NCBI GenBank assembly: GCA_032718475.1
Contig: JAUCBJ010005497.1
Location: 1-53,547 of the forward strand
Length of the DNA: 53,547 bases
Source: Nemertoderma westbladi
Taxonomy: Eukaryota > Animalia > Xenacoelomorpha
Reading direction: 5' to 3'
The notes under the pieces are model-generated. The model saw only the letters and a program-made list of their open reading frames with translations, ran no database searches and had not been told where the DNA came from. Made by a program: the position numbers and the translations under genes. This document shows, in pieces, positions 9,750 to 41,948 of this stretch (the stretch's first letter is position 1; every line of letters starts with the position of its first letter).

Positions 9750-9752
<3 letters not shown>

Positions 9753-10410: not shown

Positions 10411-10462
<52 letters not shown>

Positions 10463-13150: not shown

Positions 13151-13265
13151 AAATTTCACTTTTGTCAAATATAAACTTTTCTAACTCCATTTAAAACTCT
13201 TGTTTTTTAATTTATACTGTATCATTGCACATTGCATTAGAAGATGATTAATTAAATATAGGCCT

Positions 13266-19165: not shown

Positions 19166-19415
19166 TACCGGTATTTATGGTAGGCTTATTATATTTATTT
19201 ATATAAATTTAGGCTGAAATTAAATACCGGTATTCTGAGACTAATCCTAGTCTATAATAATACTTATATATACTATAGGTGTATACCGGTATTTACGGTA
19301 GGCTTATTATATTTATTTATATAAATTTAGGCTGAAATTATATACCGGTATTCTGTGACTAATCCTAGTCTGTAATAATACTTATATATATATACTATAA
19401 GTGTATACCGGTATT
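19166..19415 (+). repeat. About 118-bp tandem duplication in the 5' leader of element 1
   Basis: TACCGGTATTTA.GGTAGGCTTATTATATTTATTTATATAAATTTAGGCTGAAATTA... occurs twice. Confidence 0.85.
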
Positions 19416-19552
19416 TTAATATATTATATATATATCACGTTACACTGAGTAACGGTATCGGTAATTAATTACTAGGCTTACAGTTGATACTGAATTACTA
19501 GACTTGCTTTAACTGTCATTATAGTAGTAGGCATTTAACTGCAATATAAATC

Positions 19553-22500
19553 ATGGCTGACACAAAGCAAACACTGTCAGATAGTCTCCTAGAAAGAACA
19601 GTCTGTGACTCAGATAAGAGTATAGAACATCTGAGACAGAAGTCCAAGTCCCCTACATCGTCCCTCATCCCTACAGTAGTAGTATCAGACCCTAGGCTAG
19701 TAAAGCACCATAGATTTATCATAGGCACTAGGGCTCAAGTCAAGTGGGACCAAGAGGCAGCTGTTAAACAGCAGCAGCACCCGAACCAGGAACTTATTTC
19801 TCATCGGCCCGATAACTCCAGTAGTTCAGATACTGTAGAGTTGACACCCGAGATCGGAGCAAGGATGACAGAAGCAGTTTATCCAGATCCACTTCTAATT
19901 CTTCCTGGAGCCGTACTCACTAGAGTATTGATCACTGTGGAAGAACATCAAATCGATTGGGCAAGAAGTAAGCGATCGACCAGGGACAGTTATGCGGGAT
20001 ACACGATGGAGGAACTGAAGTCTATTGTCGAGACGCAATGGAACTTCCCCGGACCTGGACTCCCGTTTAACTTATCGGAAGCTGCCTGGGAGGACTTATA
20101 CAGGATGGGAGTAGTAAGGGACACTCGAGATCCAGCTGTGTGGAAGAGGTCGGCAGCAGGATATGTCCAGGGATTCTTCAGCTCTTTGGAGCGCTTAGAG
20201 GAACACCTGTTTCAACAACGTCAAGGACCTCAAGAGCAGGGAGAGCTGCTTTATCAAGTGCGAGAACGAATTTTACGGATCAGACTAATCCTTTCGGCCT
20301 TTGAAGAAGCTTCGAAGAGAAGCCAAGACACGTCGTTGCAAGTGGCTGCAAAAACTTGGTTCCAACGGGTGAGTCTTAAAGTCCAGGGAATGACACAATG
20401 GAAAGCTCAACTAACAGAGCGCATGACCCACGGATAATCAACAGACGCTACCTTTTCTCAGGTGGAAAGCGAAGCTATATCCGAAAAACCTCAGAAGAAG
20501 GATGCTATTGACATCTATATGTCGGACTATCAACGATTTATAGGTGACAAAGAGTTAAGGAGACGGCTAGCTGGACTTCACCCTAATAGTGAGGGAGCCA
20601 AATTTGTGTTAGACTCGTAAGATGCGGTAATATTAGCCGTGGAGCAGGCTAAATTTGATGAAAGCATCCTCATGGCAATGGATCAAGAAGAACAGTTAAA
20701 GAAACGGCAAATAGAAGACCGAAGGTCAGCAGCAGCGGCAGAATCTGAGAGGAAGGCATCAGCTGCAGAGGTTGAAAGAAAGGCGACAGCAGCAGCAGCA
20801 GCGGCAGAATCTGAGAGGAAGGCGTTAGCTGCAGAGGCTGAAAGAAAAGCGGCAGCAGCAGCGGCAGAATCTGAGAGGAAGGCGTTAGCTGCAGAGGCTG
20901 AAAGAAAGGCGGCAGTGGCAGAAGCAGAATTGAAGGCTTCTGAAACGACTACCCAACTAGAACTGGAGAACCTTCAGGCGAAACAAGATTACTTGAAGAA
21001 ACAGAGAACAGCTACTCAGATGCAGCTGCTAAGTCGATCTACTCCCAGGAATCAGGGATTTACATCCTCTGATGAAGGCGATACAACAGATCCTGAAGGT
21101 AGAGGACATAAATCTCGTTCAAGCGGACGTAGAAGAGGGCCACACCGGCAGAAATTGCCTAATTTGCCTCCAGCTGTGAGAAGGCAACTAGCTAGTGTAG
21201 ATTTAAGTAATCCTGAGCCTACAGACCAAATTATTAGAGTAGAAAGACTCCCTACTATAGTAGATGAGCCTGAAATAATTAGGCCTGTTCTTGAAGCCAC
21301 TCCCTCTGTAATAGAAAATCTAAATCGCCTGCTCGGTCAGCTAGAAGAACAACAAAAACGTTCTTCCCAGCAGGTCCGAGAGTTGGAAGGGACTGTTCAG
21401 CAATTAAAGGGAACAGTAAGAGAGAGTAGGTTAGAGTTGCAAGAAGTGCAGCAGAGTATCGCTTTAGAACGCGATAAATTAGTAAATATACAAATGGGTA
21501 TACCACCACCCCCTGTAACAATGTGTCAACCTGTTAGGTCTGAAGTATTTCATGCGCAAGGTGTGGAGCCTACACGCATCTATACTGCTAGTGAAGTAGA
21601 AACTCCTATAGTAAACCCTATTAAGGGTAATTATAAACCTGTTGATAATGATATTCCATATAGACCTGATCATAATCCGAGAAATTTATATACCGATAAC
21701 TCGATACTAAATAATACGATGGCCCAAGAAAGTTTTACGCGTCAAATGGCTAGAACCGAAGCCCGTCAAGCGGTAAAGGTGGGAGAGATCATCAAGTTCA
21801 ATGGAGATGAGATGAAATGGTTACCTTTTAATGAATATTATAAAGATAACATACAGAACTCTGTACTATCTAACGGAGAGAAACTTAGATTCCTCATCGA
21901 GTGCTTGGAAGGACCTCCCAAGTTAATGGCGTTAAAGTTTATTGGACATCCAGATGGATTGAGACAAGTTTGGGATACACTAAACATCAGGTATGGTAAT
22001 AGGACTAACATAGCTAGGTATTTGTATGTGAAATCAGTAGCGCCCCGGAAGTTACTTAGTAGCGGGATTATCGAGTTCTCCGATGAGATCCAGGAGATCT
22101 GTAGACAGCTAGATTGGTTAGGTAAGTCTCAGGAATATCAGAGTTCCATGGTTGTTGGAGCTGCAGCATCTACTTTGCCAAAGGGTGGAGTAGGCACTCG
22201 TTGGGACAAAAAGGTTCTTTATATGATGGACCAGCAACAAAGGGACCCTACCATGGCTGATCTCATGTCATTCTTAAATGGAGAGGTAAGATTACAGTTC
22301 CTAAAGCAGTCCCGAGAGAAGACACTGGAAAACAATGTGAGTGAAAAACCCATTTCTAGGAGAAAGGTAACACCAGTGTGTTATACAGACGACGGCGAAA
22401 GCCAGACCTCCCACGAGGAGAACAGCGGGAAAGACACCGAAAGATCTTACTATGTCAACAAAATACGGAAAGACGTAAGTAAATCTAAGTCTCGAACCAG

Positions 22501-25500
22501 TGACAGTAGAGAACAGGTAACAACAACTCCTACGTCTCCTAAGAGAATTCATGGAAGAAAGCCCGAAGAAAGAACAAGTGTGCACAACACCACACAGGTT
22601 AAAGTAAGTAACATCAAACCCAAATGTGCATTGTGCGACGGGCCCCATCGCTTGAGTGGATGTGATGAATTCTTGAAGAAATCCCTAAAGGATAGACGTG
22701 ATGTCATGTGGGATAAGCGGTTGTGTTATAATGTTCTCAGACAAGGACACCAATGGCGGACCTGTTACTCAGACGCGTGGTGTGCTAAGTGCGGCGCGAA
22801 ATATCATATCTTGCTGCACACAGAATTTGACAGAACACGCACGAGTCAGGTGAGTGAGCCTGAACTACATGTCCAATTCAGTGATGTGAACAACACTGAC
22901 CACAGCTCTGAGATGGAAGGATTCTATACGGACGAATTCTCCGACGAAAACGAATCCTGTTATATGATAAACACCGCAGTGTATCGAGCACTTACGTATG
23001 AGACTGAAACAAGCGAAGAAGATCCTCGACTGACTATTCCGGACCGGCAACCATCTTGGAAAGCGCCGACTTCCAACGTCAGAATCCGGGAATTCCCTGA
23101 CCGCAACCATTACAAATGTACGCGGGAAGAACAAGAGTAGGTTGGTACTTCACTGGACCTTCCCGTAGAACACTAATGGAAAGACTCCCTCAGGAGAGGA
23201 TACATCAGGTGAGTGAATGGGAAGAGGAAATCAGTGAGGGAGAAACCACAACTGAGGGAACACCATACTCCTCAGATAATGACGATATTACTCAATTATA
23301 CGATGAGGAAAACACAATCGACCTCCTCACCGAAAATGAAACTTGGATAAACCAAGTAAACCTGTGCCATCTCATCAATCATGGCGGACAATTCACCTAC
23401 AATGACGAATTAAACGAAGTGATTGATCGATATAATAATAAAATTCGCGATGAACACGCCGTACGATTCTTTACTCAAGAAGCCGTAGAGCCTAATTCCT
23501 ACGACAAGGCCTTATCCATCGAGGAAGAGAGAGCCAAGCAGATTCAGGAAACGCCTACCTGTTTTCTGAAAGATGAAGGTCGCTATGAGATTGGTCTTCC
23601 GTTCCGACGGCGAGAGCCCAACTTTATAAATAACCGACCTTTAGCGGAAAAGAGAATCGCGCAACTACATCGGCGTCTTACGGCCAATGTTTCAGCTAGG
23701 GAAATGTACAAAACCCAGCTGAAGAAATTCATCGATAAGGGATATACGGAGCGAGTACCGGAAGAAACACCCATAACTGAGAGAACGTATTATCTAACAC
23801 ATCATTACGTTCCCAAACCCGGTAAACCCAACAAAGTCCGGGTAGTGTTTGACGGCTCCGCCCTTTACATGGGCCAATCCCTGAACTCCGAATTGTTGCC
23901 GGGACCCAACATACTCCAATCCTTGTTGGGAATACTATTAAGATTACGGCAATATTCTATCGCTTTCGCTTCGGATATAAAAGGCATGTTCTTACAATTC
24001 AAGGCGCTGGATAGGGATTGAGACAGCCTACGATTTCTGTGGTAGCCTGAAGGAGACCTCAACCTAAAACCGGTGGAGTACTGGATGACCATCCAGGCTT
24101 TCGGGATCATCTCGAGCCCCTCGAACGCTTGTTCAGTAGTGCGTACCACTGCTGATGACAACCGAGACGCCTTCTCTAAAGCGGTTATCGACAACATCAA
24201 ACGGGATATATACATGGACAACAATTTAAAGTCCCTCCCATCAGTGGAAGAAGCCATTGATGTTGCCAAGGGAACGGTAGAGTGCTTGCAACGCGGTGGA
24301 TTTCGACTAACAAAATTCACTAGTAACTCCCGTGAGTTTCTGGAATCGATCCCGGTAGAAGAGCGAGGTATTAAAGATCTGGACCTCATCAAGGATGATC
24401 TTCTGGAAACCAAGACGCTTGGTTTAAAATGGGACACGGAGAGAGATATCTTGTTTTTCCAGTTAAAACAGCGAGATAATCCAGTTAGAACTAAACCGAT
24501 TTGTCTAAGTATCCTGAGCACTTATTTCGATCCATTGGGATTTATTAGTCCAGTTATATTGGTTGCTCGGAGCCTAGTGCAACAAATGTGGCTTGAAAAC
24601 CACTCGTGGGATGATCCACTTAAGGGAGAACTACTAAAGAAGTGGATGAAATGGGAAGATTCTCTACCGTCCATCGAGAACTTTACGATTTCCCGTTCAT
24701 ATTTTGGTCACGTTCTCCCCACGTATTCCTATCAACTCCATGTGTTTGGAGACGCCAGCGATATGGGAATAGGTATAGTAGCCTACCTGAGGGTTGAAAC
24801 TCCAGATGGAATTAAAGTTGCCTTGGTCACCTCTAAGGCCTTGATAAACAACAAACTACGAGTTCCTCGAGCGGAGTTAAAGGCGGCTCTATACGCTACA
24901 GCCATCGGCCGGAATGTAACAGAACAGATCGACTATCCACTGGAGAAAACTGTCTATTGGACTGATGCTTTACTCGTTTTGGAGTATATAACCAATGAAG
25001 TCTGTCAGTTCAGCGTCTTCGTTACCAACAGAGTAGCCATTATACTTAGTCGCTCTAATGTAGATCAATGGAGACATTGCCCTGGGACGATTAATCCAGC
25101 CGACATCGCCTCTGGAGGAGCAACCCCGCAAGAACTGATAGATACTCCAGACTGGTTAGGTGGACCCGACTTCCTAAGTAAAGAAGAGGATGAATGGCCT
25201 CCCCATCTCACCATGGCTGAGATTAGACAAGCCAAGGGAGCGGAGAAAGTCAAACCTAAAACCCGGACGAGTAAATCAAAGTTATTTAAACCCGTGATAG
25301 ATCTATCTGTACTACACATTTCCAGGGACGACGCTGTGGATCTAAACTCCCCCACCACGAACAGATCTGTTATAGACATCAGAGAAAGAGACTGGAAATC
25401 TGGAACACCAGATGTCTCGCAAGGACTCTCACCTCTCCTGCAGAGAGCAATAAATCACTATAGCTCCTGGAATCGGCTTTGTAAGGCCGTCGTGTATTTG

Positions 25501-27122
25501 AAGCGATGCTTCCATCATCACTATTCCAGGACGAAGATCGCTAGTGATACCGCTCCACTGACATCCGAGCAGGTCCATGCTATTAAAGATCTTCCCACAT
25601 ACAAACTGTCGGATAGGTTTCTGACAGAGAAGATCAGTTACCAAGAGCATGAAGCAGCCAATAAGCAGATACTGAGACTCCTGCAATGCTATGAAGATTC
25701 CGATAAGTATTTCCTGTTGTTGAGAAATCCACAGATGCGCTTAAGGGATCGTTTCTCTAGCACAATGATAGATGGGTTAAGATAGGAGGGTTAAGATAGA
25801 AGGGATGATAGATAGGAGGGAGATTAACTAATGCTCCATTGTCCTTTGACACTAAATTTCCCATACTCATTAGAAATCTTGAAATACAAGTCAAGATGAT
25901 TGTAGATGTTCACAGTAGGCTTTACCATGCTGGTAGAGAACGAGTTCTTAGCGAAATTCGAACTCGCTATTATTTCCATAAACCCCGTAGAGCTCTGAAC
26001 CAAGTTCTTAGGAACTGTATACCCTGTAGGAAAGCATTCAGTAGGCCTTTAACACAGCGAGAGGCAGAATTACCTTGGGAATGAGTAAGCTTCTATGAAC
26101 CACCCTTTACTAATACTGGTGTGGATTTATTTGGCCCTATTGAAGTATATCGTGCTAGGACTATAGTCAAGCGATGGTGTGTCATCTTTGTCTGTATGAC
26201 TTGTAGAGCGATCCATCTAGATATGGTGAACGATCTATCTACCAACAGCTTCATACTGAGTTTATGCCGGCAGATCGCTCGCTTTGGAACTAGCAACACG
26301 ATGAGATCTGATAAGGGAACGAACTTCATTGGCGCCAATAATGAGATCAAAGCTTACGTTAAAGATTGGAACCAAAGACAGGTGGACGATCAGCTAAGGG
26401 TAACAGCATCTAGCTGGACCTTGAACGCCGCCGACACCCCTTGGTGGGGAGGAAGTTGGGAGAGATTAATAAGGAGCGTGAAGACAGCATTTCACTTTAT
26501 AGTGCCTTGCCGCGCGTATCTCACTGACGAACTTTTGCGGACGTTAATGGAAGAAATCGCCGCCTATCTTAACGAGAGACCGCTTATGCCAGTCTCATCG
26601 AGTCCCGACTCCCTAGAAGCGCTAACACCCGCGCATTTCCTACTGAAGAAACCTGTAGCCATGCTCCCACAATCGGAAATCAATGACGGAGACGAATACT
26701 GCCAACAAACTTGGCAACTCATACAGTTATTATCCCGTCGTTTCGCTGACCATTTCGAAAAACATTATTTGCCTACGCTACAACTTCGAACCAAGTGGTT
26801 TGCGCAGCAAGAAAACGTCAGCGCTGGAGACATGGTCCTTATTGTGGAATCAGATCTTCCACGTAAGCGGTGGCAGACAGGTCGTATCATCGAGACTCAT
26901 ATATCCGATGATGGTTTAGTGCTATCGGTAGAACTCGTCGTCATGCGACGTAACTTTAAGAAACCTGGAATTGTATTTGAAACACAACAACTCAATCACC
27001 CAGTTGGTCGTTTATGTTTACTGGAAAGAGACAGAGAACTATCCGGAAACTATGGAAGGCAAGATACTCTTCCCACGACCACCTCCCTAATCCAACAAAC
27101 ATCTAGGGACTCCCCAACGTAA
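19553..27122 (+). pseudogene. Disrupted BEL/Pao gag-pol of element 1
   Basis: Gag IIKFNGDEMKW..F, knuckles CALCDGPH.LSGC and CAKCGAKYHILLH, KVRVVFDGSA, SDIKGMFLQ, RT YMDN (YMDD mutated), RNase H LHVFGDAS, IN HAG..CIPC, GVDLFGP, SDKGTNF, WERLIRSVK. In-frame stops at 20435, 20618, 23098, 24019, 24043 and 26082; protease deleted with a frameshift near 23000-23100; second frameshift near 25790-25830. Confidence 0.93.
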
Positions 27123-27645
27123 CAGCATCTGGAGTGGGTGTGTGACTATATTATTTTATATTTTTTTTATTATTTTATATTTATGTATGTATTATTATGT
27201 AATTTTATTATAATCGTTTTCTTTAATTTTATTTAGTAGAATATTATTTTAGCGATTATTTAGTAGATTAGTGCAATATATATATTCGTGTTTATTACTT
27301 AATTACTTAGCATTATATTTAGTGTAACGGCGAGAAATAATTATTTTTCTCTTTCCTTACTGTCCGTATCATATTATAAATACGTGACTACAGTAAGATG
27401 AAATGTCCGTACTTATTAAAGTACAATACCGCCCCTACTATACTCAAGTAGTATTGGTAAGTAGAGTATTAGGAATGCAAAGTTCAGATCCTCGTGTTTC
27501 GGCTAAACCAAGCTCTGGGTAGACCTTGGAATCGACTTGCCTCTTCTCACTGACATTGCTTCTTGCAATATTGCTCTCATACCGTATATTAAATAATACA
27601 TATAGTAGAATGATGTCCATTTAACAGTAGCGTAAAACGCAAAAT

Positions 27646-28057
27646 AAATCTGTTAAACCCTTTGACCATCTGCAATTCTAGTCGATTAAGATATCGCGGC
27701 ACCCACCGATATACTTGAAAGACAAAATTCTAGAATCAGTGGTTAACGTCCCCAGACATGTTCTGGAATAAATCGGTGCCCATCTTAAATATTAAATATT
27801 TAATAAATATTTATAAAATCTATTAAAACAAATGTTATAATAGAGTAAAAAGCAGACAAAGAAACTCTAAGGAGTTTGTAAACCAAGAAAATCTATAAAT
27901 CCAAAATCTGTTAAAATTCAGATCCTTTAAAATTCTAGTCGATTAAGATATCGTAGCACTTACCGATACTCTTAAAAGGACAAATTTCCTAGAATTAAGG
28001 ATCCTAGTCCCCAGACATGTTCTGGAATAAAATTGTGTCTATTTAATATTAAATAAT
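27646..28057 (+). ncRNA. Two tandem (257-bp period) copies of a putative structured RNA element
   Basis: Nested stems with different sequence but preserved pairing in the two copies (see findings). Confidence 0.5.
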
Positions 28058-28850
28058 AAAATTTACGGGAATAAATTTAAATTCATATCCTCTCATGAAT
28101 TTGATAAATTGTCATTTTATACAATTTATAACATTCCCAAAATTCCATTAATTAATAGATCATGGGAGCGGAGATTCACCCTATTATATATTAGTGTGAG
28201 AGAATCTCCAATGTATAGTCAATAGCCAATAAAATTCATAAAATCATGTATAAAGGGGAATATTGACAATTAAAGAATTACTATTAAATAGCATCCCAGA
28301 TCTGTATGCATGAGAATTACCCTAATTCTACTGCTAGCTTTCCATAATGTCACCATAGCAACAACCACGCTAGAATTAGAAGCGAGTTAAAAGAACAATA
28401 GAAAGCTTGCCCCATTGAATAGCATACGGAATAAATAGCACACTGCTAGTATCCAGGGATACATAATAATAACGTGGCATTCTGGAAGGCACTTGACTAA
28501 CGGACAAATGGCCCGAATGTGTACAATTTGTGACAGTTGTGTGGAATTTGTGCATTTATAGGTGAATGTTACTACTAAAGTGTGTTTACAGTAGCAAGTC
28601 GCAGTTGTGAAAGTTGCCCTACCTCTATAGCAAGAACCTGAAGTAATTCTAAGCCCTTGGGACGGACAGTGGAGTGACTCGCACTGGTTATTGTTGTCGT
28701 TGTGTAGCTACTACGTTGGCGAGAGGCACAGCGACGACAGTACATCGGCGCTGAGGATCTTGCGCTGTCCGGGGGCATTGAGGGGGAGGCAGCGACGACC
28801 GCTAGCCTAAATATAATTAATTATAATATCGATAAACTCATATAGCAGCT

Positions 28851-29684
28851 ATGACTGAGTTGATAGAAGATGATCTTGGTATCAGGGAGCGATATACCCT
28901 ACCATTGCAAGCGTTTGTTGATAGTTTAATAAGCGGCGATGCTAGTCAACCCACTACGGAGGATGATGGCTGTTATATCGAACCGCCAATGTCAAAGGAA
29001 CAGCTCACGCGTGAATTGGACTATAGAAAATTCACTGCTCGCTATACGCATCGTAATGGTACGTATATGGACTTCTTAACTACTGGTCATCCTATCGATT
29101 TACACGATACGGACGATGTAGACACTGAAAGGGAAATGGTCCTATTTAAATATCATACCCAGCGGAGTTGGAACGATAAACTGAGAATCGAACATGAGAA
29201 TTCTATTCGAAACCGACTCGAAAGAGAAGACGTTGAAGAGCCGGATAAACGCAGTGACTTCAATGAATATTTGGAATTCTTGAGAGAAACATATCTCAAT
29301 GTAGCCAGTCAACAAAATCTAGAAACTCGATATCCTCAAGGTATACATCATGACCCTATGATAGAACTCAAACGACTCTATTTCACTATGATGTATCTTA
29401 CCGCCGATCGTCCACTACCTGTTATCCCGGATAGTTTTGAACAAATGGAAGAATATTGCAAAACTGGAGAACGTTCACCCGCGTTTCCTCTACAGGACGT
29501 ACGTCTTTGGTATTATTGTGACGAATGCCCTAGACCCAACCAACAAATTGAAAGACATAAACATCCGCGGAGACGTTGCGCTAAACACAGTTTTACGCGT
29601 TATACTTACGGGAGTTTCGAGCGAAACCTGTTCGATGTATCACCTAAGATCGCTCGTCTTAAACGATCACTGAATAAACCATGA
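28851..29684 (+). CDS. Accessory ORF A of element 1, 277 aa, unknown function, C-terminal Cys/His cluster (CDEC..HKH..CAKH)
   Basis: Open frame with ATG; its stop overlaps the next start (ATGA at 29681-29684). Confidence 0.7.
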   Translation: MTELIEDDLGIRERYTLPLQAFVDSLISGDASQPTTEDDGCYIEPPMSKEQLTRELDYRKFTARYTHRNGTYMDFLTTGHPIDLHDTDDVDTEREMVLFKYHTQRSWNDKLRIEHENSIRNRLEREDVEEPDKRSDFNEYLEFLRETYLNVASQQNLETRYPQGIHHDPMIELKRLYFTMMYLTADRPLPVIPDSFEQMEEYCKTGERSPAFPLQDVRLWYYCDECPRPNQQIERHKHPRRRCAKHSFTRYTYGSFERNLFDVSPKIARLKRSLNKP

Positions 29685-32600
29685 TCAGAGTTCCGGAATA
29701 CTCGGTCAGGCCTCCTCATAACCTAGTGAGACCTCAAACTCTCGATCCTAACAGTATCACTGATCCTCCCGAACTATATTCCCTGTTCAAAGACTTAGTG
29801 TTACCCGAACAACTAATCGGTGGTGCTCCGGTAGTGGGTTCGTTAGACATCCGCCCATCCTACTTAGCCGGATTGGGACGCGGGCAACTAATATCGCCCT
29901 TTGATCCTTACAATCGTCCAGGATTAAACCCGATTCAACCCGCCACGGAAGTCGAGGAGAGCATTATAAGAAACGCTTTAGACGCCATTCGACAGAAAAT
30001 CGGAAAAGGAACACAAGATTGTTTAGAGAAACGTAAACTACACCAACAAGTCCAATCGGTGAAGGAGTTAGCCTTGCCACAGTTCGATAGGGAAATCCAA
30101 AACCTCGAGGAAGACATAGAGCTTGGACGCACGTATTCTCTACAAGAATTTTTAGAAGAACGCTTACAAAGACAAGCGGAAGAAAATCTAATCGAAGAGA
30201 AACACACGAAACTGGAAGAAAGAGAAGAAGCCGCTTTAGCCCAACCTGAAGCTCAAATCCTCATGACCGACCTCTACTCTAAAACCGTTCGTCATCCCTC
30301 GATGATTACACATTTCGGGGACAAGCTCTTCGCGACGATACAGCCTCAACCGGTTGATATCAGTACAGGATCGCAAAATCTTATCGCTGACGCCCCTATG
30401 TTACAGCGTCCGCCGATCGAGGCCGCTCGTGTTGATGGTATCCTCGTTGAACCTCCGGACAATCGAGCGGATCTTGTCCGTCGTATGGTACACGATGTCA
30501 ACATACGCGCTAGACCTTTACAGAACTCGTTTTATGGGATTAAAGACCACCCTTATTACGTTAATCTGACTCAATATTATATGGTAAAACCAGAGGACCC
30601 GACACATAATTTAAAGTTTCTACCACTAATAAATCCTCTAGACATTGTTGAACTCGAACAATTGCAGAAACATCTGGATCAGTTAGTAAAGGTAAACTCA
30701 TTTAGAAAACCATATAACATTTCTCGAATCGAGAAAGATATAGAACCTCCTTATAATCTCGATGGATTTATTAAAACTCGATTAGTCCATTGGAATCTAG
30801 ATGTATTATTTGAAGAGGAGAAAATACCAAGATATGGAAATGTGGAGACGTATACCACTCGGCACATGAAGTATAGTGATCTCCCTGACGCTAACCAATG
30901 CGCCACCTTGTGGCATCCAGTAGGGATGACCCTAGAGAACGCCACCAAGGAGTGGAATGAAACTCTTAATGTTATTGAGATGTATGGAGTTGTCACCTAC
31001 GATAATGAAGGTAGCGTTCCGGTCGGAGAACTAGGAACTACGCGCATGATCCACATACGCGGATTAGCTGGTTCTACCCACGTGTTTACTCGAGCGTGTT
31101 CCGACGTGATGGATTATTCTTTTGAAACTCTCACCGAAACACAAAAGAATCTCCGACATGGACAATTCGAACTCGCGCAGCGTTACGTCATTGACACCGA
31201 ACGCAAACCGGCCATGGGCATCGATGGATCGATGTTACCCCAGCCCGTACTCGAGATGTTGTTCAACGAAAGAATCCTTAAAATCGGCTCAGCTGTTTAT
31301 GGAGATCTCCAAAACGACTTTCGGAATATGGAGAACATTCCATACCCTTTCGTTGATACACAGCTGATTGCTCCCTGGGCAGAAGGCCGAGGTTTCTTCC
31401 GCACCATGTATGCTAATACGTCTAGCAACATTACAAAGGTGCAACGAACTTCCATCGGACATCTTGCCTTTCAGGAATACGGATGGAATTTCAAAGTCGG
31501 AAATCCCATTAACTATCAACAAGTATACGGAGACCATTATTCTCGATTATACTTTGATGGACCATTGACCGCACCGGGCGCCGTGTATAGCTTCATTAGT
31601 GTTCCACTCCGTCCCTCCTTAGCTATCTACACGATCTTTGAAAACACCGCACTTGCCGGTTGGCTAGCCGATGTGTGCAGTCGTACTATACGCGCCCATC
31701 CATTAATACTTGGGACCAAACTCGCTAAGCTAGATGAACATAATAAATTCATCCGTTTCGAATGTTTCCGGCGATTTTTAACCCCGTTCCGCAACGTGGA
31801 TAGCCAATTTAAAGACCGCGCTTTGACCAAACTCAGCCTAAGAATCTCAGCTGCAGAGAAGTTGGATAGCGCTGGATTCGCCATTTTCAAAGAGATTTGT
31901 ATATCGAACTTACACTCCTCTGTTATACAAAGACCTCGAATCCCCACAGGTTATTCTGTCGTGGAAATTCAGACAATAGGTCCACCTGAAGAGACAGACA
32001 CGCCCACCTCAGCTATGCACTTGGAAGACGAACCAATATGTTTAGAATCTGAGGAGATTCAGCCTATCACGCCCCGGAACAGCGACAACGATTACATCAT
32101 AGAATGGTATCAAGGTCCACAGTGTCTCACTGCGTACGATTATCGACATGCCAACTATGTTTCTAGGCAACGTTGTCGGTTATGCGCATCGAGAGACCAC
32201 GATACGCCCATGGACACCAACGTCCGCTGTTCCTATTTCCAAGAACAACCGACTATGGAAATTTATTGCGCATATTGCAGACTCAATAACTTGCATATTT
32301 TTGCAGTTTGCCCTCAATTTATGACTCAATGTCACCATTGTCAACTAAAGGGACATGCCAGTTTCGACTGCCCTTTTAATCACGATTTGGAAAGCGTAGA
32401 TGAAATGATCACACTAGGTTACATCAGAGCTTGGGAAGCGAACGCTGATTTACATTGTGATTCGCGCCATCGCTATTATTCCGGACGCGCTTACGAAGGA
32501 GTTTATGCGTTCCATCCTTATCTATTCGCTTCGGTTGAACAGAAATCACGCATATCAAGTTACGAGCTACTGAAGCGCGTCGGAGAATGTATTTCAACCA

Positions 32601-33103
32601 AATTCGTACGCAAATTTCTCAGGAGTGTTAATCCTAGCGACCTTCATTCCTATAACTTAATCAATTATATCCGTCAAGATCCAGACTATGGAGACTTGTT
32701 TGTTAACTCACACCCCGAGTTACAGGAAGTGTATCGACGGCCTTACGAATACCGAGCCCGCGAACGCGAGTTGGAAAGGACCATTAAACCCCGGAGGTTT
32801 CTAACTGCCTATGGTCCACCCACGGCCCTCGTTCAGACCACTCGTAAAGGACCCGTAAGAGCGGCTGTCTTGAAACGAGCTCTCAAAGCCGTTAGACCCC
32901 TCTCACCTGACGTTGACGTCAATCAACCCGGTACTTCGACTGGCGGATACACCGACCATAATCCTACACCCCCTGATGCAATCATATTGCACCCTTCACC
33001 CAGGAGTTATAGCCCTCCTTGTAAAGTGGCTCGCCCCAAAGAGAAAAGGACTCTGGCTAGCTTTAAGAAACTGCGTAAACGCCGTCCGCGCAAGAAAGAC
33101 TAA
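29681..33103 (+). CDS. Accessory ORF B of element 1, 1140 aa: coiled coil + DEDDy (WRN/RNase D/EXD-like) 3'-5' exonuclease-like domain + 3 CCHC zinc knuckles + basic C-terminal tail
   Basis: ExoI VVTYDNEG (D441, E443); LPQPVLEMLFNERILKIGSAVYGD (D542); FVDTQLIA; TSIGHLA...YG; ExoIII-like PLRPSLAIYTIFE (Y650, E654); knuckles at aa 832-897 including the canonical CHHCQLKGHASFDC; ends KKLRKRRPRKKD. Confidence 0.8.
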   Translation: MIRVPEYSVRPPHNLVRPQTLDPNSITDPPELYSLFKDLVLPEQLIGGAPVVGSLDIRPSYLAGLGRGQLISPFDPYNRPGLNPIQPATEVEESIIRNALDAIRQKIGKGTQDCLEKRKLHQQVQSVKELALPQFDREIQNLEEDIELGRTYSLQEFLEERLQRQAEENLIEEKHTKLEEREEAALAQPEAQILMTDLYSKTVRHPSMITHFGDKLFATIQPQPVDISTGSQNLIADAPMLQRPPIEAARVDGILVEPPDNRADLVRRMVHDVNIRARPLQNSFYGIKDHPYYVNLTQYYMVKPEDPTHNLKFLPLINPLDIVELEQLQKHLDQLVKVNSFRKPYNISRIEKDIEPPYNLDGFIKTRLVHWNLDVLFEEEKIPRYGNVETYTTRHMKYSDLPDANQCATLWHPVGMTLENATKEWNETLNVIEMYGVVTYDNEGSVPVGELGTTRMIHIRGLAGSTHVFTRACSDVMDYSFETLTETQKNLRHGQFELAQRYVIDTERKPAMGIDGSMLPQPVLEMLFNERILKIGSAVYGDLQNDFRNMENIPYPFVDTQLIAPWAEGRGFFRTMYANTSSNITKVQRTSIGHLAFQEYGWNFKVGNPINYQQVYGDHYSRLYFDGPLTAPGAVYSFISVPLRPSLAIYTIFENTALAGWLADVCSRTIRAHPLILGTKLAKLDEHNKFIRFECFRRFLTPFRNVDSQFKDRALTKLSLRISAAEKLDSAGFAIFKEICISNLHSSVIQRPRIPTGYSVVEIQTIGPPEETDTPTSAMHLEDEPICLESEEIQPITPRNSDNDYIIEWYQGPQCLTAYDYRHANYVSRQRCRLCASRDHDTPMDTNVRCSYFQEQPTMEIYCAYCRLNNLHIFAVCPQFMTQCHHCQLKGHASFDCPFNHDLESVDEMITLGYIRAWEANADLHCDSRHRYYSGRAYEGVYAFHPYLFASVEQKSRISSYELLKRVGECISTKFVRKFLRSVNPSDLHSYNLINYIRQDPDYGDLFVNSHPELQEVYRRPYEYRARERELERTIKPRRFLTAYGPPTALVQTTRKGPVRAAVLKRALKAVRPLSPDVDVNQPGTSTGGYTDHNPTPPDAIILHPSPRSYSPPCKVARPKEKRTLASFKKLRKRRPRKKD

Positions 33104-33181
33104 CTGTTTAGAGTATTTACGTATATTAGAAACTGTGATTTTGTATATGTTATAGACTCAAATCCCATTTTCTGGGAGCGG

Positions 33182-34458
33182 TGTAAAAGCTTCTGTGGGA
33201 TCTAGCTGGCCCTTTTGCTTTGCGGTCCGAGTTCCCCCCAGGCGCTGGAATACTCTAAAAGGGCTTTCTAACTATATATATATTCCCCTCGCCCGCAAGG
33301 TGCCGTAATAGGTGTTTTAACGGACATAAAAGTCATTCTTCTAGATTTGTACTTTAGAGGACATAATCCGCAATCTTGTGACACGATAAGCTAGATATTC
33401 TTGAAAACAGTGTCGCTACCATGACGACGGCTAACAGCTGATATTGCCACGTCGACATTTCTTTGTTTCTTTGTTCTCTCGTGGTTCGGTTGACCAATCA
33501 GAGCGATTTTTTCTGTAGATGTGGAGCTTTGGGCAGATCATGCTAGAGCGTTCAGTCTTACTGTTTTTCTTGATACTGTTGTGTTGTTGGTATCTAGGCC
33601 AGGAACACCGGCTCTAGAGTTAACTTGTTTCAGACTTTTAGAAGAAACATTAGTAGGCTTAAGATTATAGAGCGTATAACTGTTATCAACACAAATCAAA
33701 TCAACTCATATATCACATATCGGTCCATATCAGTACATTGTCATATCATATCTTAACCTACCGTCTTAATGCTATTTACTGTTGTGTTTTGGTTGAATAT
33801 TATTTGGAGAATATTTATAAAGAACCCAAATTTCCCAATTTTCTTGATACACTACAGGTTAGAGAGAGACGGGTTATATATAGCGATTGCGACTTATATT
33901 GTTGTGGTTTGTAGTGAATTTAATGCTATTTGATAAGCACTACATTGGTCCGTTGCTGTTCTCTCTATATATGATAAAATTCATTGACGGTCGGCAAATT
34001 AGTGAGCAGTATTGTGTGTTACCGGTAGTGTGCATGATTGTGACTGATAACTAAGCATTTCCTAAAGAATGCGCCTCATACGTGAATCATAAGCCTTACC
34101 GACTTACCGTTGTGATTAGTGTAAGTCATATCTCTGTTTACTTAGATAGAGCGCCACGTCCTAAAGGAACTGTTAATATTTCCCGAAAGTGAATAATATT
34201 AGTCAGAAATTATTTATTAACGATCAATCGAATAATACAGTAGGTTTCACTGCAATAATAATCTAAGCCCTCAGAATCCAGTCTCCCGGGAATATCCAGC
34301 GGGTGAATGGACGCGCACTAGGCTGGCTTCTGCTAATGTTGTGTTTATTGGTATTAAATATTTGTCTTCTTCTAAAGTATATTTATAAACCAAAAGACAT
34401 ATAAATTTTGGCAGGTTAAACTGCTAAAGGTCTTCCAAAAGCGCGTACACATAGTTTT
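33182..34458 (+). repeat. 3' LTR of element 1 (diverged from the 5' LTR, apparently truncated)
   Basis: Follows the PPT and starts TGTAAAAGCTT; similarity to the 5' LTR ends near 34458; no CA plus CTAAC TSD found. Confidence 0.8.
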
Positions 34459-34504
34459 CGCAATTTCGTTTCTCCCAAGTTCAGTATCCCTTTCAAGCTG
34501 ATCT

Positions 34505-34915
34505 ACAGTATATATGTCATATTCGGTCGTCCACGGATACGCTTTCTTGTGTTGGTTGCCAGAATAGTAAGTAGTTCTGGTATCACCTCGTCTTTACTTC
34601 CTTCTCCTGCAGTGTCCACAGAATCTTAATCTGCGTTCACTGAGGGTGGTTGATACAGGTGGCATTGAACCATAAAGTTCGGCATTTGTCATGTGTTGAT
34701 TCCAGCTGACATTTACAGTGCTGCCATGACCTTCGTAGTCTTGTGTAACAACTACCAATCCTTGTTCAAATGATTCGTCAGTATCCAGGACTCACCTTCG
34801 TATAAGAGTACACTTTCCATTGTAGCTCGAAGGAAGTTGGTCTTCAGTTGCCTAGAGAAGTCTGATTTCCAGATAGTATCCATTTTGATAGAGCTACCCA
34901 TGCCTTTGCTTTCCT
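34505..34915 (-). mobile_element. Degraded RTE-clade LINE fragment (RT C-terminal region)
   Basis: Frameshifted minus-strand translation RKAKAW..KMDTIWKS..SRQLKTNFLRATMESVLLYEGESW...NVSWNQHMTNAELYGSMPPVSTTLSERRLRFCGHC...RGRP; not shown in the ORF track. Confidence 0.8.
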
Positions 34916-35626
34916 AACAACTTCTACTGTTTATGTATTTTTTGCTGGTCTCTATCCATTACCCACAGTACAGAGTGCTGGTAGTCGTTACAGATTTAAT
35001 TTTCGGAGTAATCAGCTGTTATTTATGTCGATTTTCCCCTGTCGAGGGTTTAATTGTGATTGCCGAAAAAGACTCTCTCCCTCTGGGATATAATGTATAA
35101 TTTACCGAACCAGCGTTAGCGAGGTTATTTAAATATAAATTCGCTGAATAAAATTTGTTTGTCTGATTTTTGGGTTCCCCACGACCTTCTAGATGTAGAA
35201 GGGCGCGGTGACCCACCCCCAATTCACCCTTAATCACCGGATTGCGGTACCAGTCCAATACTTCACTACAGTAGGCCTACCTGTAGATCTCCAGTATTGT
35301 CAGGTACTGTACAAATGATTAAGGCTGCAGTGTGCCGCCCGCGGGGTTCACATGTACAGTATAAGATTTCAAAATTTCAAATACTGTTAAAAAGGCGGCA
35401 GTGTACTGCCTTTGAGGGTAGGATCAGTAGTAATATGGTAAATCCTCTTTATAATATATAAATCTCTGGTACGACTTAGAAAATAAACCTCTTGGTCCAA
35501 TCAAATATATTTCTCTTAGTCCTTCTCCTTGGGAGGAAAAATTAATGTAATTCAACTTTGGTACGCAAAGAGTGAGTAGGCCGTCGCATGTTTATTAATT
35601 TGTAAGAATCACATTAAAATTACATC

Positions 35627-35698
35627 CTCCCCGACCGGGAATTGAACCCGGGTCTTGCATGTGACAGACGCAGATACTAACCACTATACTATCGAGGA
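35627..35698 (-). tRNA. tRNA-Asp (GTC)
   Basis: Identical 72-nt sequence to the other two copies although the flanks have diverged; T4 terminator. Confidence 0.93.
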
Positions 35699-35890
35699 GT
35701 GCGAAAGAATGGGAAACAAATGTGCCCCGATGTTCTTATATGAACTTCAGTATCACTCACAATGTCATTGTTGTATAATTACTACATGGTTGGTTCTAAA
35801 TTTAATAATTACAGTATTTTACACATGTTATCGCTAACACAGAGATGTGTAATATTCCGAACTAGCACAACTGAAGAGAGATGTTAATTA

Positions 35891-36140
35891 CACCATGGCC
35901 GTATCGAAATAGCCCTTAATACAACAACCATTTTTAGGGGGTCGGAGCCCCCCCCCCCCCCCAATTTTTTTCAAATTTCCATAAAATGCTACGAAATTTG
36001 GTATGATGATAGATCGACACCTTTTCTTACTGGTGGCCTGGCCGGATTTTTTAATTTATGAGCAATTTGAAAAAAATTAGGGGGGGGGGGGGGGGGGCTC
36101 CGACCCCCTAAAAATGGTTGTTGTATTAAGGGTTATGGTG
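35891..36140. mobile_element. 250-bp MITE with CACCAT...ATGGTG termini, long subterminal inverted repeats and TA target-site duplication
   Basis: CCCTTAATACAACAACCATTTTTAGGGGGTCGGAGCCCC (35913 onward) is the reverse complement of about 36094-36132. Flanked by TA on both sides. Empty site GTTAATTATACAAA is present in copies A and B. Confidence 0.9.
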
Positions 36141-37286
36141 TATACAAAAAGGTCATACGGGTATTGATTATTGATGCGTAAATTCCATAATTCCACATAA
36201 TGGCCCTTTCACTGTTCTCTGTCTCTCCCTTTATTGTTTTTTCATCTCCACTTGCTCGTTGGAAACCTCCGAGGATTATTACTGACTTATTATTTATTTA
36301 TTGGATGTGTGGTGCAGCCTACTTAATGTACAAATGGCCAACTGTGCAACACGCTGGAGAATCATAACGGAGGGGAGCTGATCATTTTCTAACGTAAAAC
36401 AAATATAGCATTAGGCCTAATGCTTCATAGCCGTAATCAATACGAATTTCTATAATTTCATTTCCATTTGATATCCTGGAATAAAATAGTCCTATGTACA
36501 GTAAAAATCGCATAGATACTGTATAAACAAAGGTCTTATGTACAATACTGCCTGATATATGCAAAAAAATTTTGAAGTTTTTGAAAAAAATTTTTTGTAA
36601 GTAAAGATTTTGAAGTACATTTATGTACTTGCATGCAAAAATACGGTATGCCAATGCTGCCAATGCCAAATACACTGTAATGTGTAGGTAAAAAAAAACC
36701 CAAAAGTCTGATTATCTCAGAATGACACTTTTGTCACATGGGAGTCATTCCTTCGTATTAGTACAGGTAGACCAACATTGTAGACCAACTATAGTTATAT
36801 AAAAACACGCATAACACAAATTAGCAAGATACCAAATTAAATAAATTAATAAAATGATAATTTATATTGTTTTTTGCAGATATAATATTAATTATACTGT
36901 AGGTTAACTGTGCATATGATGAATATTTTACTGTATGTCCTAAAAGGGCACCTAATTTTTACAATCTCAATAATTTACAGTAGTATAGTAAGTCGAGCCC
37001 GAGTTAGTGTAACTAAGCCCGAGTCAATCTGCGGTGTAATTATATATCTACTGTAGATCGCACCGATTAATCTTAGTCAGACTTATAAATAAAGTTTAAT
37101 ATTTTCGCATAACATCAGATGCAGCACAACTACATACTGTATTTCCAAATGATTTTGTGCAGCTCTTGCGCTCGTGAAAGCTACTGTACAGTACACTACT
37201 ATTGTACAGCATATGTACAGTACTAAGAAATCATTTGTAGTACAGTGCAGTAGTCCAAGGAATGTTATTCTGCTGTTCCCATCAAC

Positions 37287-38589: not shown

Positions 38590-39201
38590 TGTTACGGTAT
38601 ATGGCGCTGTATCCACATATATTAGTCATTATGCAGTATGCAATATTAGTCGTTATACTGTACACAATATTAGTCCGTTATACTGTATGTAATATTAGTC
38701 CGTTGTGCAGCATAATATTTTAGATAAGGCATAATAACGCAATGATATTTAGATAGAGAAATCGAAACACCCATATATTTGAATCCATCCATTTTGTATA
38801 GTATGTAGCCCTACCTACGTAATTTTGTATTAGGATATATGTAGATAGTTCCAGGGTAGCGAGTTTATTCGGACCCTGGATTTTGTGCTTGCTGATATTA
38901 GTTTGATAGGGCTAGCATATAGGGACGCTGTCCTGGCCATTCAGCAGCCAGAGACGTGAACCATTACCATATATGGTAATAATTCGAGGTTTGGGCAGGC
39001 AATAGGACTACAATCCGGCCTCCTTATTGGATTAACTGCTTCCAGGTTGGTCTAATGCTAGCGCGGACTGGAGAGCCAATAGGAGAGCGATTGAGTCACC
39101 CTATTGCATCACCCCATCCGGATCACCTATAAATTGGCGGTGTGCCGGTAGAGCCTCACATGACACCTCACATGATCTGCTATCATCTTTGTACTTGCTG
39201 A
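38590..39201 (+). repeat. 5' LTR of element 2 (minimum extent; true 3' end lies further right)
   Basis: Matches 52936-53547 with no difference found by eye. Confidence 0.93.
39076..39133 (+). promoter_or_regulatory. Candidate LTR promoter (CCAAT box about 50 bp upstream of TATAAA)
   Basis: CCAAT at about 39076 and TATAAA at 39128-39133 in U3 position; repeated in the 3' LTR. Confidence 0.5.
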
Positions 39202-41948
39202 GCTGTCCCTATTCAATTTTGACGGATATTTTAGTGTATTTTCTGCAATTTGCTAATTTTGATTAATTTCTTGGAATGATTTGCTAGTGCGATTACTCTC
39301 GATTGTGTTTCTCAATTAATTCCTTCGATTACTGCTAATTACAACTGAACTATGATTTCTACTTTTTGATTAATGGTTCTATGTGATTCCTTTCTGCGCA
39401 ATAATCCTAAGGGATTTCTGAGACTGTCAGACTTTGTGATTTTGCATGCGCCGCTACGGTAGCTATTAGCATAATGGAGGGCTAAGGTGCCAGTAGGCGG
39501 TGGGCTCATCGGGGGGTTAGCGACGAAGGGAGAGCGGAGGATTCAAAGGCGGGCAACGCTGGCGGGGGTCAACGTTGCGGTCGGGCAATTTGGACTGTGG
39601 GTTGGAGACCGCTCGCTGGTACAGTAATTAGGGGGCTGATGATCCAGGTTTTGTCTCTATTTAGTATTAGGGGGGCAGGAATTGGGTTAGTTAGGAAGCC
39701 TAGATGTACCCGGGAGGGGCCTGCATACCTTACAGTAAGTAAGTAAGTTGCGAGTAAGTAGATTGCGAATTAGTCAATTGCGAATTATTATGTTGCGAAT
39801 TATATAATTGCAGATTGTATAATTGCAAGTTGTACTGTTGTGATCTGTGATTGCTGACGCTGATTGGTGTGTTACTGAAGTGTGCCTGTGATTACGAATG
39901 CTTAGGTAGGCACCCTTTCCCTTTTGATTGATTTCTATTTCTTAGTTACAACAAATAATTACTGATTAGGTCAAAGTAATACGGCATTTTAGGCTATTAC
40001 TAGTGAAACCTGTTGTGTAATAAATTAGAATTACGCATTCTGGAACTCTTAGTAATTAGTGCGCTGTTACATATTTGTGACTGTAATTAATTAGTAAAAT
40101 TAAGAATTAGTACGCAGCATAGCGGAGAGTAGCTAAGGTAATAATTTAGAGTACCGTAAACTATTCACGCTAAGCGGTTATTTGCATTAGCGGGCAATAA
40201 ACTAGATCGCAGTAGTCAGTACGCAAGACACTAGTAAGTTGCTGGCCTAAAGCCAGCTGCAGGCAAGTTTAGACCCAGAGCGGTATCACCCACGAAAGAC
40301 ATTGTACTGTACCAATTTTGATTATTTTAAATATTCTCGCATTCACACATTCCGTCTGTCCGTTGGGGAACCCTCAGTATTCGCGATTAGAAAAGACGTA
40401 GGCAATTAGCGTACTTCAACAGTAGTAAAATTAGGCGTAAGAATATACTCTGAGTGCAAAGCCCCTCGCACTCGTCTTAAGTAAGCTTAGGGAGCCGACT
40501 CGGGTTTATTGTTTTGGTTATTCCCGCGTGGCTCATAGATTCGAACAGTTAGCTCTCTATCGAGCGATCGGTAGAGAAAGGAACAAGCGATTTTGCTGGA
40601 GTTGTGTAAAATTAGTAAATATATTAGCGGACGGCAGATTAGCGCCATCTAACGGTAAGTAGCGGTTTTGTATTTAGCAACCCTTACAATTTAGTAATAT
40701 CACGCTCCTGAGCCCCTTTACTTAACAGTAGAGCAGTCTTTGTGTCTTATTGGTTAGACGAGAACTTATTAGGTTGGCAGAGAGGTATACGGGTATTTGT
40801 CTGTTCAACAGTTCTGCTGTTAGTATAGGTGTCGCGGTTGTTTAACAGTAAGGTATGTTTTGTTTGCTGTAGGCTGTAGCGTACAGTAGAACATTGAGTA
40901 TATTCTTTTAGGCTGTTAGTTTAGATTACTGTATTCACTGGCCGCGTACAATAGTACAGTAGTACATTAGGCTGATTGTTGTTACTGCGTACGGTAGAAG
41001 GGACATTTGTTTTGCCGTACCACATACAGTATCATTAGGCTGTTAGGTTGGTGTACTGTTTTACTTACTGTACTGCATACAGTGGATGTACGGTAGTGCG
41101 TTTTGCTAATTGCGAATACAGCAGTTCCTTAGGCCTTAGGGCAAATTGTAATTAGTAAGTTTTTTGAAAATTTTAGCTAGGTTTGCGAGAATTCAGTTTC
41201 GGTCAAAATTATTTTGTAAAATTCTAGAGTTTTGTACCGGTATGTTAGGTAACCGCTTAGTTATTTTATACCATCTGGAGATACATGGCAAGACGGAACT
41301 TCTGAGTTTGGGGTTCGTGTGGGTCTGCGGGTTCGGTTTGCAATCAGCGAAGGGACTGAATCTTTGGACGCGGACGTGGAATCTCACAGCAAACAAGGTT
41401 AGTTGTTCTGTTGGCACCATTGTGTTTGTGGAAGCACTAAGCAGTAAAAAATTATCGGTTGTTTAACTGCGAAGCTGAACTCAATTTATTAGTTAGGTTA
41501 TTTAGGTTTAGCCGGCCATGGTTTTTTGAATCGCTCAAGTTAGAGAGAGAGATAGAGAGAGTCGCAACCCGAAGATGTAGCCACGCGCTAGTGGATACAT
41601 ATAATATTTGAAATTAAAATTACGTTGATTAGAGCTATATATAAAATTAGAAATATTCGGGTGGCAAGTTTATTTTGAATATTTTGTATTAGATTCAAAG
41701 TTATTTTGTGCTATACCGGTATTTAATGCTATATAATAGCTATATAATAATATTTTGTTTAAATATTGTGCTAGTATTTGCTATAACTATATACCCCATT
41801 AAATTCACAATATTGCATTGCGAATTTATTTGACATTTTGGACCAACTGATATTAGACAAATAATTTGACCGTATTTCGGTTAAATTATAATTATATCTC
41901 GAACCTTTGCGAGATATTTTTGCCGGAAGGCAAAACATTATTTAGACT

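Follow-up and report, generated by a model that had tools for sequence, protein, structure and literature searches.

A BEL/Pao retrotransposon carries an accessory gene for a predicted DEDDy-type exonuclease with three zinc knuckles

Between the integrase and the PPT of a BEL/Pao retrotransposon from Nemertoderma westbladi is an accessory gene encoding a protein of 1140 residues, predicted to be a 3'-5' exonuclease of the WRN/EXD2/RNase D type with three zinc knuckles. Our tentative reading is that this protein blunts host RNA silencing in trans. The features of the element, within the window (the whole stretch of 53,547 nucleotides that was analysed), are as follows.

16468-17612, forward strand: 5' LTR, 1145 nt, TGT...ACA, with a 9-mer at its start identical to the 3' LTR
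19550-27122, forward strand: BEL/Pao gag-pol in six reading-frame pieces, RT active-site motif degenerate
27123-28835, no strand assigned: AT-rich spacer, 1.7 kb, with a second PPT-like tract at 27131 and a 150-nt direct repeat (77% identical)
28836-29684, forward strand: upstream frame, 282 aa (277 from the first ATG), multi-copy, running into the start codon of the 1140-aa ORF
29681-33103, forward strand: intact accessory ORF, open over 1140 aa
30932-31699, forward strand: DnaQ/DEDDy-like exonuclease domain, about aa 418-673, with ExoI D441/E443, ExoII D542 and putative ExoIII Y650/E654
32174-32371, forward strand: three CCHC-type zinc knuckles, one of them canonical
32828-33103, forward strand: basic, proline-rich tail (14% P), ending in a putative NLS-like run
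33175-33181, forward strand: PPT, GGAGCGG, abutting the 3' LTR at 33182; the same tract is at 52929 in a neighbouring element
33182-34449, forward strand: 3' LTR, 1268 nt, TG...CA

The host element and its accessory ORF

Assignment of the host element to BEL/Pao (Belpaoviridae), made in a preliminary description of this DNA, is supported by three Pfam matches over cut-off in gag-pol: DUF1759 (E = 6e-11), Peptidase_A17 (E = 5.6e-36) and DUF5641 (E = 3e-19). BEL-type domains follow the expected Gag-RT-RH-IN order, and RT-RH and IN are 38-44% identical to those of a neighbouring BEL element in the same window, which is young and intact, about 15 kb long and lacks an exonuclease ORF. The element is 18 kb long, against 4.2-10 kb for Belpaoviridae (a length that is typical rather than strictly required), and its LTRs compare with 0.2-1.2 kb typical of BEL/Pao. 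In Belpaoviridae an env-like third gene is optional.

The copy carrying the 1140-aa ORF is defective. No protease-like stretch was found in its gag-pol, and tblastn with the polyprotein of the intact neighbour left residues 1141-1527, which include the protease motif, unmatched. No standard PBS (tRNA-Arg/Gly type) was recognised after the 5' LTR by eye, without host tRNAs for comparison, and Rfam gave no element within 16400-34600 at E ≤ 0.1. The LTR pair is 77.9% identical over 1073 aligned columns, and the 5-mers flanking it differ. Because the LTRs are merely 78% alike and there is no target-site duplication, this copy is probably recombinant. An old insertion was rejected as the explanation for the 22% divergence between the LTRs: about 18 stops would then be expected in the 1140-aa ORF, which is open.

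Intronless, the accessory ORF ends 72 nt ahead of the PPT, in the place given by the preliminary description, but it does not follow the integrase directly, as the upstream frame and the AT-rich spacer also lie between them. The spacer is probably a promoter or splice region. The upstream frame has no Pfam match over cut-off and none among PHROG and NCBIfam models. The view that the 1140-aa product is not env-like is supported by its sequence: its highest 19-residue hydropathy is 1.24, so it has no TM segment. Preceding the exonuclease domain is an N-terminus of about 400 aa without a recognised domain, and the protein closes with the K/R-rich tail already described (K+R make up 24% of aa 1050-1140).

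The ORF is not peculiar to this copy, a point on which the preliminary description had made its proposal depend; in three host studies it forms a multi-copy family, and thousands of contigs there cover the ORF, the PPT and the LTR start at 80-100% identity, and 0-5% of placed contigs in those host runs pass into unlike sequence. Among the listed differences, which are counts over the 40 sites with the best support out of 1,242 rather than a formal dN/dS, 16 of 21 in the 1140-aa ORF are synonymous (expected fraction 0.22-0.30; p = 1.5e-5, transitions weighted), as are 8 of 15 in the upstream frame (expected fraction 0.21-0.29). The 1140-aa ORF is likely to be kept by selection. It is accessory rather than core, as is seen from the neighbouring element without it and from one deep contig in host run X5 that skips 2.8 kb, nuclease included.

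The exonuclease domain and the knuckles

Pfam and PDB sequence searches with the 1140-aa protein gave no match, as did PHROGs. A profile of 67 WRN/EXD2-type exonuclease sequences scores the protein at 10.2 bits, compared with at most 0.3 for 500 shuffles and the reversed protein; hhalign profile-profile comparison gives 95.2%, and a second comparison 95.8% (40 column shuffles reached no more than 2.0%). Of 18,950 NCBIfam models, RNase D alone matches (E = 0.0099). The ExoI-ExoII core is very probably homologous to DEDDy exonucleases, and the DnaQ fold of the WRN/EXD2/RNase D branch that was initially proposed is supported by the sequence profiles together with a partly circular model. With EXD2, WRN-exo, MUT-7 and Nibbler (PF01612) the protein has the ExoI and ExoII signature in common, but it falls below Pfam detection, with insertions and YxxxE, and its placement is not resolvable to subfamily.

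A single distant homologue, P0002 (29% identical, on a 9.4-kb contig), keeps the exonuclease domain, the D/E/D/Y/E residues and three knuckles. Its Atlas matches are PF01612 clusters, with a top score of 0.86 (a lead only), and the top cluster is an exonuclease with a knuckle array in Euglenozoa. Word-based searches, covering limited lengths and candidates, returned nothing with aa 380-920, and with P0002 or a three-sequence profile as query they recovered P0002 alone; two- and three-sequence profiles against the PDB gave no exonuclease. The homologue searches returned no rotifer ORF3 sequence, 1.84 billion representatives include no close host relative, and searches of viral contigs, genome contigs, phages and plasmids gave no true relative. 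A metagenome scan yielded two short ExoII-motif matches only (L001 and L002); a further candidate, L003, was rejected for having no PF01612 match.

Reference ExoI and ExoII blocks place the motifs of D441/E443 (31001/31007) and D542 (31304) first in both the 1140-aa protein and P0002. For ExoI the margin is modest (15.4 versus 12.0); D441/E443 is also the top D-x-E by the P0002 motif and lies in a strand of the model. D542 aligns to the invariant Asp of the family with z = 7.3. The ExoI and ExoII assignments are well supported. At the ExoIII position is Y650-x3-E654 (31628/31640), with Glu instead of the Asp of the family (YxxxE versus YxxxD); these residues are common to P0002, and the P(0)/Y(+8)/acid(+12) spacing is that of WRN. 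Reference ExoIII blocks did not place aa 642-654 among their top four positions in the 1140-aa protein, and the candidate ExoIII assignment is the weaker one. All motifs quoted in the preliminary description lie where it had put them, and its DEDDy assignment stands for ExoI and ExoII but is less secure for ExoIII. MAFFT and hhalign pointed to an alternative ExoI at about aa 484-487, which would be without the first Asp; it was rejected because the ExoI and strand 2-3 segments of P0002 best match aa 436-443 and 455-469, and because the model gives aa 470-515 low confidence.

The AlphaFold model has a mean pLDDT of 52 (71-93 in the core, below 50 over aa 598-660), compared with 29 for an earlier model from two sequences. 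It has strands at aa 437-447, 453-461 and 466-470, though the alignment put the later strands of the family elsewhere, and two sizeable insertions relative to the exonuclease family, after strand 3 and before ExoIII. The fold match is partly circular because the AlphaFold input was an alignment of exonucleases. For the second fold, ExoIII was trimmed from the reference exonucleases in this alignment, because MAFFT never paired reference ExoIII with Y650/E654 in any trimming simulated. Best among the structural matches, which end at about aa 606, is EXD2 (6K17; Z 8.8, rmsd 4.0, 110 aligned), and the first 41 VIA matches are chains that we take, from their titles, to be of DnaQ fold; EXD1 and Egalitarian are among tied matches (Z 5.8-6.0). 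Foldseek with the same model returned nothing at E ≤ 0.001.

After the exonuclease domain come the three knuckles, C832-C850 (CX2CX4HX9C), C863-C877 (CX2CX5HX4C) and C884-C897 (CX2CX4HX4C). All are present at the positions and with the spacing first described, but only one is canonical; the zf-CCHC_3 match (E = 0.0096) is below cut-off. Knuckles 2-3 align with knuckles of P0002, which match retroviral nucleocapsid (E = 1e-4).

Comparison with known systems

The Juno, Vesta, TelKA and Mag clades are placed among gypsy-like elements. A DEDDy-type ORF3 is carried by the bdelloid rotifer LTR retrotransposons Juno and Vesta, and by Terminons (Rodriguez, Kenefick and Arkhipova 2017, PMC5408684), as the preliminary description had indicated for some rotifer retroelements. 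[quoted passage not shown] According to the same text, ORF3 is likewise an RNase D/WRN-like, non-env ORF downstream of pol, without a TM segment, with an altered DEDD signature and with predicted exonuclease activity. The rotifer signature is DEED, whereas here the third acid is Asp (D542) and the fourth is Glu; for ORF3 the text describes a Cys-His-Cys motif only and no knuckle array. Compared by description, the ORF studied here is distinguished by its 1140 aa, high copy number and synonymous excess, whereas the rotifer study found ORF3 linked to neither copy number nor selection (PMC5408684).

Trypanosoma brucei RNase D, TbRND (Gao et al. 2020, PMC7797062), also has a DEDD exonuclease followed by a CCHC knuckle array, and its structure 7C42 matches the model with Z 5.8 (rmsd 4.1, 124 aligned). 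The likeness is one of architecture: TbRND, as described in the accessible text, comes from a cellular mitochondrial gene and has four regular knuckles behind a linker of 28 aa (PMC7797062), whereas here three irregular knuckles lie about 160 aa from the exonuclease in a protein that begins with a 400-aa N-terminus and ends in a basic tail. DnaQ-family exonucleases are transposon-borne elsewhere too, in Dada (DEDDy, PMC3706591) and KolobokD (DEDDh, PMC9587614), but both are DNA transposons, the Dada domain is inside the transposase, and the role proposed in the accessible accounts is DNA-end processing.

Among the literature matches listed there is no BEL/Pao exonuclease, a case of which subscription papers, Repbase entries or supplements could hold; 'exonuclease' has 0 occurrences in PMC3118150, and the full text of PMC8742986 mentions env only. 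The novelty is lower than the preliminary description claimed: DEDDy ORFs in LTR elements (PMC5408684) and, from trypanosome RNase D, the exonuclease with a CCHC array (PMC7797062) were known. Exonuclease capture in the env slot would now extend to a second LTR superfamily beyond the rotifer elements, with a different domain layout, and the high copy number and purifying-selection signal are additions to the rotifer study.

Possible function and alternatives

In the silencing-suppressor reading, which the preliminary description had also raised and which we prefer, the accessory protein would be translated from a transcript of its own or from a spliced one, and its knuckles may hold single-stranded RNA and pass the 3' end to the nuclease, in analogy with the knuckle domain of TbRND. 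The basic tail would direct the protein to the nucleus, and its substrates would be small-RNA precursors that lack protection, or antisense transcripts directed against the element. Counting against an anti-silencing role, mature piRNAs carry 2'-O-methyl groups and are bound by Piwi, and so resist such enzymes. The rotifer study's negative result on copy number and selection also weighs against it. Knuckle-assisted trimming of small RNA has a precedent in TbRND (PMC7797062). We lean towards D441, E443, D542 and E654 with Y650 forming a working two-metal site. That the element encodes an exonuclease destroying small RNAs, with a Nibbler/MUT-7-like fold and nucleocapsid-type knuckles set against the host piRNA/siRNA pathway, is doubtful. 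If true, it would be an enzymatic, transposon-encoded silencing suppressor, and a recurrent strategy captured independently by BEL/Pao and other LTR lineages. As a candidate for an enzyme with which an animal transposon would oppose small-RNA silencing, the protein is soluble, encoded by a single gene and directly assayable.

Possible, though again improbable, is a catalytically weak or dead DEDDy domain that, as in EXD1, Egalitarian or Maelstrom, would serve as RNA-binding adaptor or decoy, for example by localising element RNA or sequestering a silencing factor. Glu in place of the last Asp, an ExoIII without confident modelling and the two insertions would fit this, as would EXD1 and Egalitarian among the tied structural matches and the occurrence of inactive DEDD derivatives in piRNA biology (PMC5408684), but the four acidic positions and Tyr are kept, at WRN spacing, in two proteins 29% identical.

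It is unlikely that an active nuclease serves the element's own nucleic acids, such as 3' ends of the genomic RNA or tRNA primer, or cDNA by-products. Such roles have been proposed for the exonucleases of rotifer ORF3, Dada and KolobokD (PMC5408684, PMC3706591, PMC9587614), and the nucleocapsid-like knuckles of P0002 and the unrecognised PBS of this copy are consistent with one; against it are the intact young neighbour without the ORF and the separation of the ORF from Gag-Pol, which leaves its product no obvious entry into the particle.

Passive carriage, in a single recombinant copy, of a host gene captured recently or of a separate nested unit would suit the dissimilar LTRs and the missing target duplication, but is very unlikely given the thousands of contigs from the three studies that span ORF, PPT and LTR start, the few that run into unlike sequence, the intronless ORF, its synonymous excess and the want of a close host relative among the representatives searched. 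Least probable is a proofreading partner of RT that allows an oversized genome, as nidovirus ExoN does: the 18-kb length, the 40-kb Terminons that also have DEDDy ORFs and the ability of WRN/EXD2-type enzymes to act on DNA (PMC5408684) would favour it, but the neighbour reaches about 15 kb without the ORF, the ORF is separate and the family copies are diverse.

Accessory frame and host element

Window positions 29681–33103 (+) translate without a stop into 1140 residues (P0001). D441 and E443 of ExoI lie at 31001 and 31007, D542 (ExoII) and Y650/E654 (putative ExoIII) occupy the residues assigned to them in the preliminary description, as does every other motif quoted there, the three Cys/His knuckles are found at 32174–32371, and the tail called K/R-rich contains 24% K+R. 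The maximum 19-residue hydropathy is 1.24, so P0001 is not env-like, in keeping with the transmembrane segment having been judged absent.

Upstream is a gag-pol with DUF1759, Peptidase_A17 and DUF5641, which bears out the assignment to BEL/Pao; it is split into six broken frames with a degenerate RT motif, and a search of it for a protease-like stretch found none. The main ORF is separated from gag-pol by 1.7 kb of spacer and by a frame of 282 aa (28836–29684, +) that has a cluster of Cys and His residues towards its end. Downstream of the ORF come a GGAGCGG tract and then an LTR (33182–34449). The ORF is flanked by a BEL pol on one side and, on the other, by this LTR, which is homologous to that preceding the pol (16468–17612; 77.9% alike). 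Flanking this LTR pair, a target duplication is absent, and no primer-binding site was recognised in this copy. Its 18 kb lies above the ICTV range of 4.2–10 kb for BEL/Pao genomes (PMC8742986). Divergence of the LTRs in place was rejected because it would predict ~18 stops in the main ORF, which is intact; the copy is therefore probably a recombinant of related subfamilies.

A second BEL/Pao element (38590–53547) is young and intact, with LTRs identical across the visible 612 nt, a 2767-aa gag-pol frame (41946–50249) and the same PPT as the host element. Its 2.7-kb 3′ region lacks an exonuclease ORF and holds only short GC-rich frames (50968–52080), one of which weakly resembles the 282-aa frame (tblastn E 0.034 in 2.7 kb). 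Just past the integrase stop of both elements (27131 and 50308), kilobases upstream of the true PPT, is a second PPT-like tract, perhaps a former 3′ end predating cargo gain.

Predicted exonuclease domain

P0001 went undetected by Pfam, PHROGs and PDB sequence searches, and its only NCBIfam match, RNase D (E 0.0099), falls far below that family's cut-off. The sole passing homologue among 1.84 billion representatives is P0002, a protein of 648 aa (E 6e-6) found on an ENA contig of 9.4 kb; it aligns over the exonuclease domain (29% identity) and the knuckles, retaining D62/E64, D130, Y229/E233 and all three knuckles. In the Atlas, the clusters closest to P0002 are PF01612 ones, of which the top-ranked also has zf-CCHC (0.86; a lead only).

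An independent profile was built from prokaryotic and viral exonucleases collected by their ExoIII motif, 67 of 156 being kept with an upstream ExoI motif; PF01612 matched 49 of the 49 scanned, and the best PDB matches of the profile are WRN, EXD2 and MUT-7/Nibbler. It scores 10.2 bits on P0001 (aa 518–590; ≤0.3 in 500 shuffles and the reversed protein), with a profile–profile probability of 95–96% versus ≤2% across 40 column shuffles. AlphaFold, given P0002 together with 60 reference sequences truncated ahead of ExoIII, in an alignment picked after simulations, returned a mean pLDDT of 52 (71–89 at aa 418–447, 86–93 at aa 518–557, <50 at aa 598–660). VIA-align ranks EXD2 first (Z 8.8, r.m.s.d. 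4.0, 110 aligned), its matches stopping near aa 606; to judge by their titles, the first 41 rows are DnaQ-fold chains. EXD2 is also the best Foldseek match (E 1.7e-3), this structural agreement being partly circular. Together, the profile and structure comparisons proposed earlier favour a DnaQ fold, which the domain very probably adopts.

The reference ExoI and ExoII blocks ranked the D441/E443 and D542 motifs first in P0001 and their counterparts first in P0002 (ExoII z 7.3; ExoI z 4.4, by a narrow margin). D441/E443 is further supported by the model, which forms three strands from ExoI onward despite an alignment placing the family's later strands elsewhere. The proposed active-site motifs are upheld at ExoI and ExoII and less so at ExoIII, whose block did not pick aa 642–654: Y650/E654 is based on conservation in P0002 and a spacing like that in WRN (P(0), Y(+8), acid(+12)), with Glu at the final position where Asp is usual. 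On balance, P0001 is predicted to be an active nuclease; an inactive RNA-binding adaptor is unlikely.

Copies and selection

Seven sequencing runs are listed, six with part of the stretch; four were compared across 28836–33650. Three of them (X1, X3, X5) stem from different studies of organism A, with X1 perhaps the window's own source, and X4 has a different organism label. All 30 bins are covered in all four. Contigs at 80–100% identity number 23,808 in X1, 7,545 in X3 and 437 in X5; X4 has 124 contigs. In X1, X3 and X5, 0–5% of the compared contigs continue into unlike sequence, and the copies therefore have the ORF–PPT–LTR arrangement in common; no listed contig spans the whole region. Rather than being absent from other copies, the main ORF is a real multi-copy accessory gene, recurring in three studies.

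Synonymous changes were counted at the best-supported 40 of 1,242 variable sites, minus four outside the ORFs, which is not a formal dN/dS. They make up 16 of 21 in the main ORF, against 0.22–0.30 expected (p 1.5e-5 when transitions are weighted), and 8 of 15 in the upstream frame (p 0.04). This pattern suggests purifying selection on the main ORF.

Some copies carry a small indel near the junction of the two frames, which may for that reason be separate in some copies and perhaps not in all. A deep X5 contig skips 2.8 kb including the nuclease (29215–32019), X4 shows the same skip, and X1 and X3 have further internal deletions; such contigs are likely amplified deleted derivatives.

Function and neighbouring features

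The main ORF looks accessory: a young intact BEL element lacks it, derivatives that skip the nuclease reach high depth in one run, and there is no fusion of the ORF to Gag-Pol. DEDDy ORF3s are known in the rotifer LTR elements Juno and Vesta and in Terminons; their signature is DEED, their activity is unproven and no sign of selection is reported for them (PMC5408684, PMC6431247, PMC6338049). DnaQ exonucleases occur in the DNA transposons Dada (PMC3706591) and KolobokD (PMC9587614). 'Exonuclease' occurs nowhere in a BEL/Pao paper (PMC3118150), and the accessible part of PMC7968707 adds nothing on retrotransposons. The architecture had been thought undescribed for BEL/Pao: this stands in literature searches at listing level (Repbase, subscription papers and supplements outside their scope), but the layout of exonuclease with CCHC knuckles is that of Trypanosoma brucei RNase D. 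The knuckles of that enzyme bind single-stranded RNA and boost trimming, and its overexpression depletes guide RNAs (PMC7797062).

By analogy, the P0001 knuckles would bind single-stranded RNA and raise trimming, and the enzyme, acting in trans and ending in a basic tail, could trim or destroy unprotected small-RNA precursors or antisense RNA. Tentatively, counter-defence (anti-silencing) is the predicted role that fits best, since the gene looks dispensable yet selected, and its basic-tailed product is predicted to act on RNA in trans; the strong form of this role, destruction of host small RNAs, is doubtful. That P0001 instead processes the RNA, primer or cDNA of the element carrying it is rather improbable. 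A passenger role is very unlikely, and proofreading for the oversized genome is slightly more so.

Further features of the window and of two soil-type metagenome contigs (L001, L002)
8187–8260, 13659–13732 and 35626–35699: tRNA-Asp-like copies inside dispersed repeats, possibly a tRNA-derived repeat
1–852 and 8736–9800 (−): two open frames (283 and 354 aa), neither of which has a Pfam match over cut-off
7794–16468 and 35597–37098: nested local duplications
35909–36136: small inverted-repeat element
L002 3303–3974 and L001 846–1088: WRN-like exonuclease frames (PF01612 E 5e-6, WRN E 2e-7), which may, at a guess, be Dada-type transposon exonucleases
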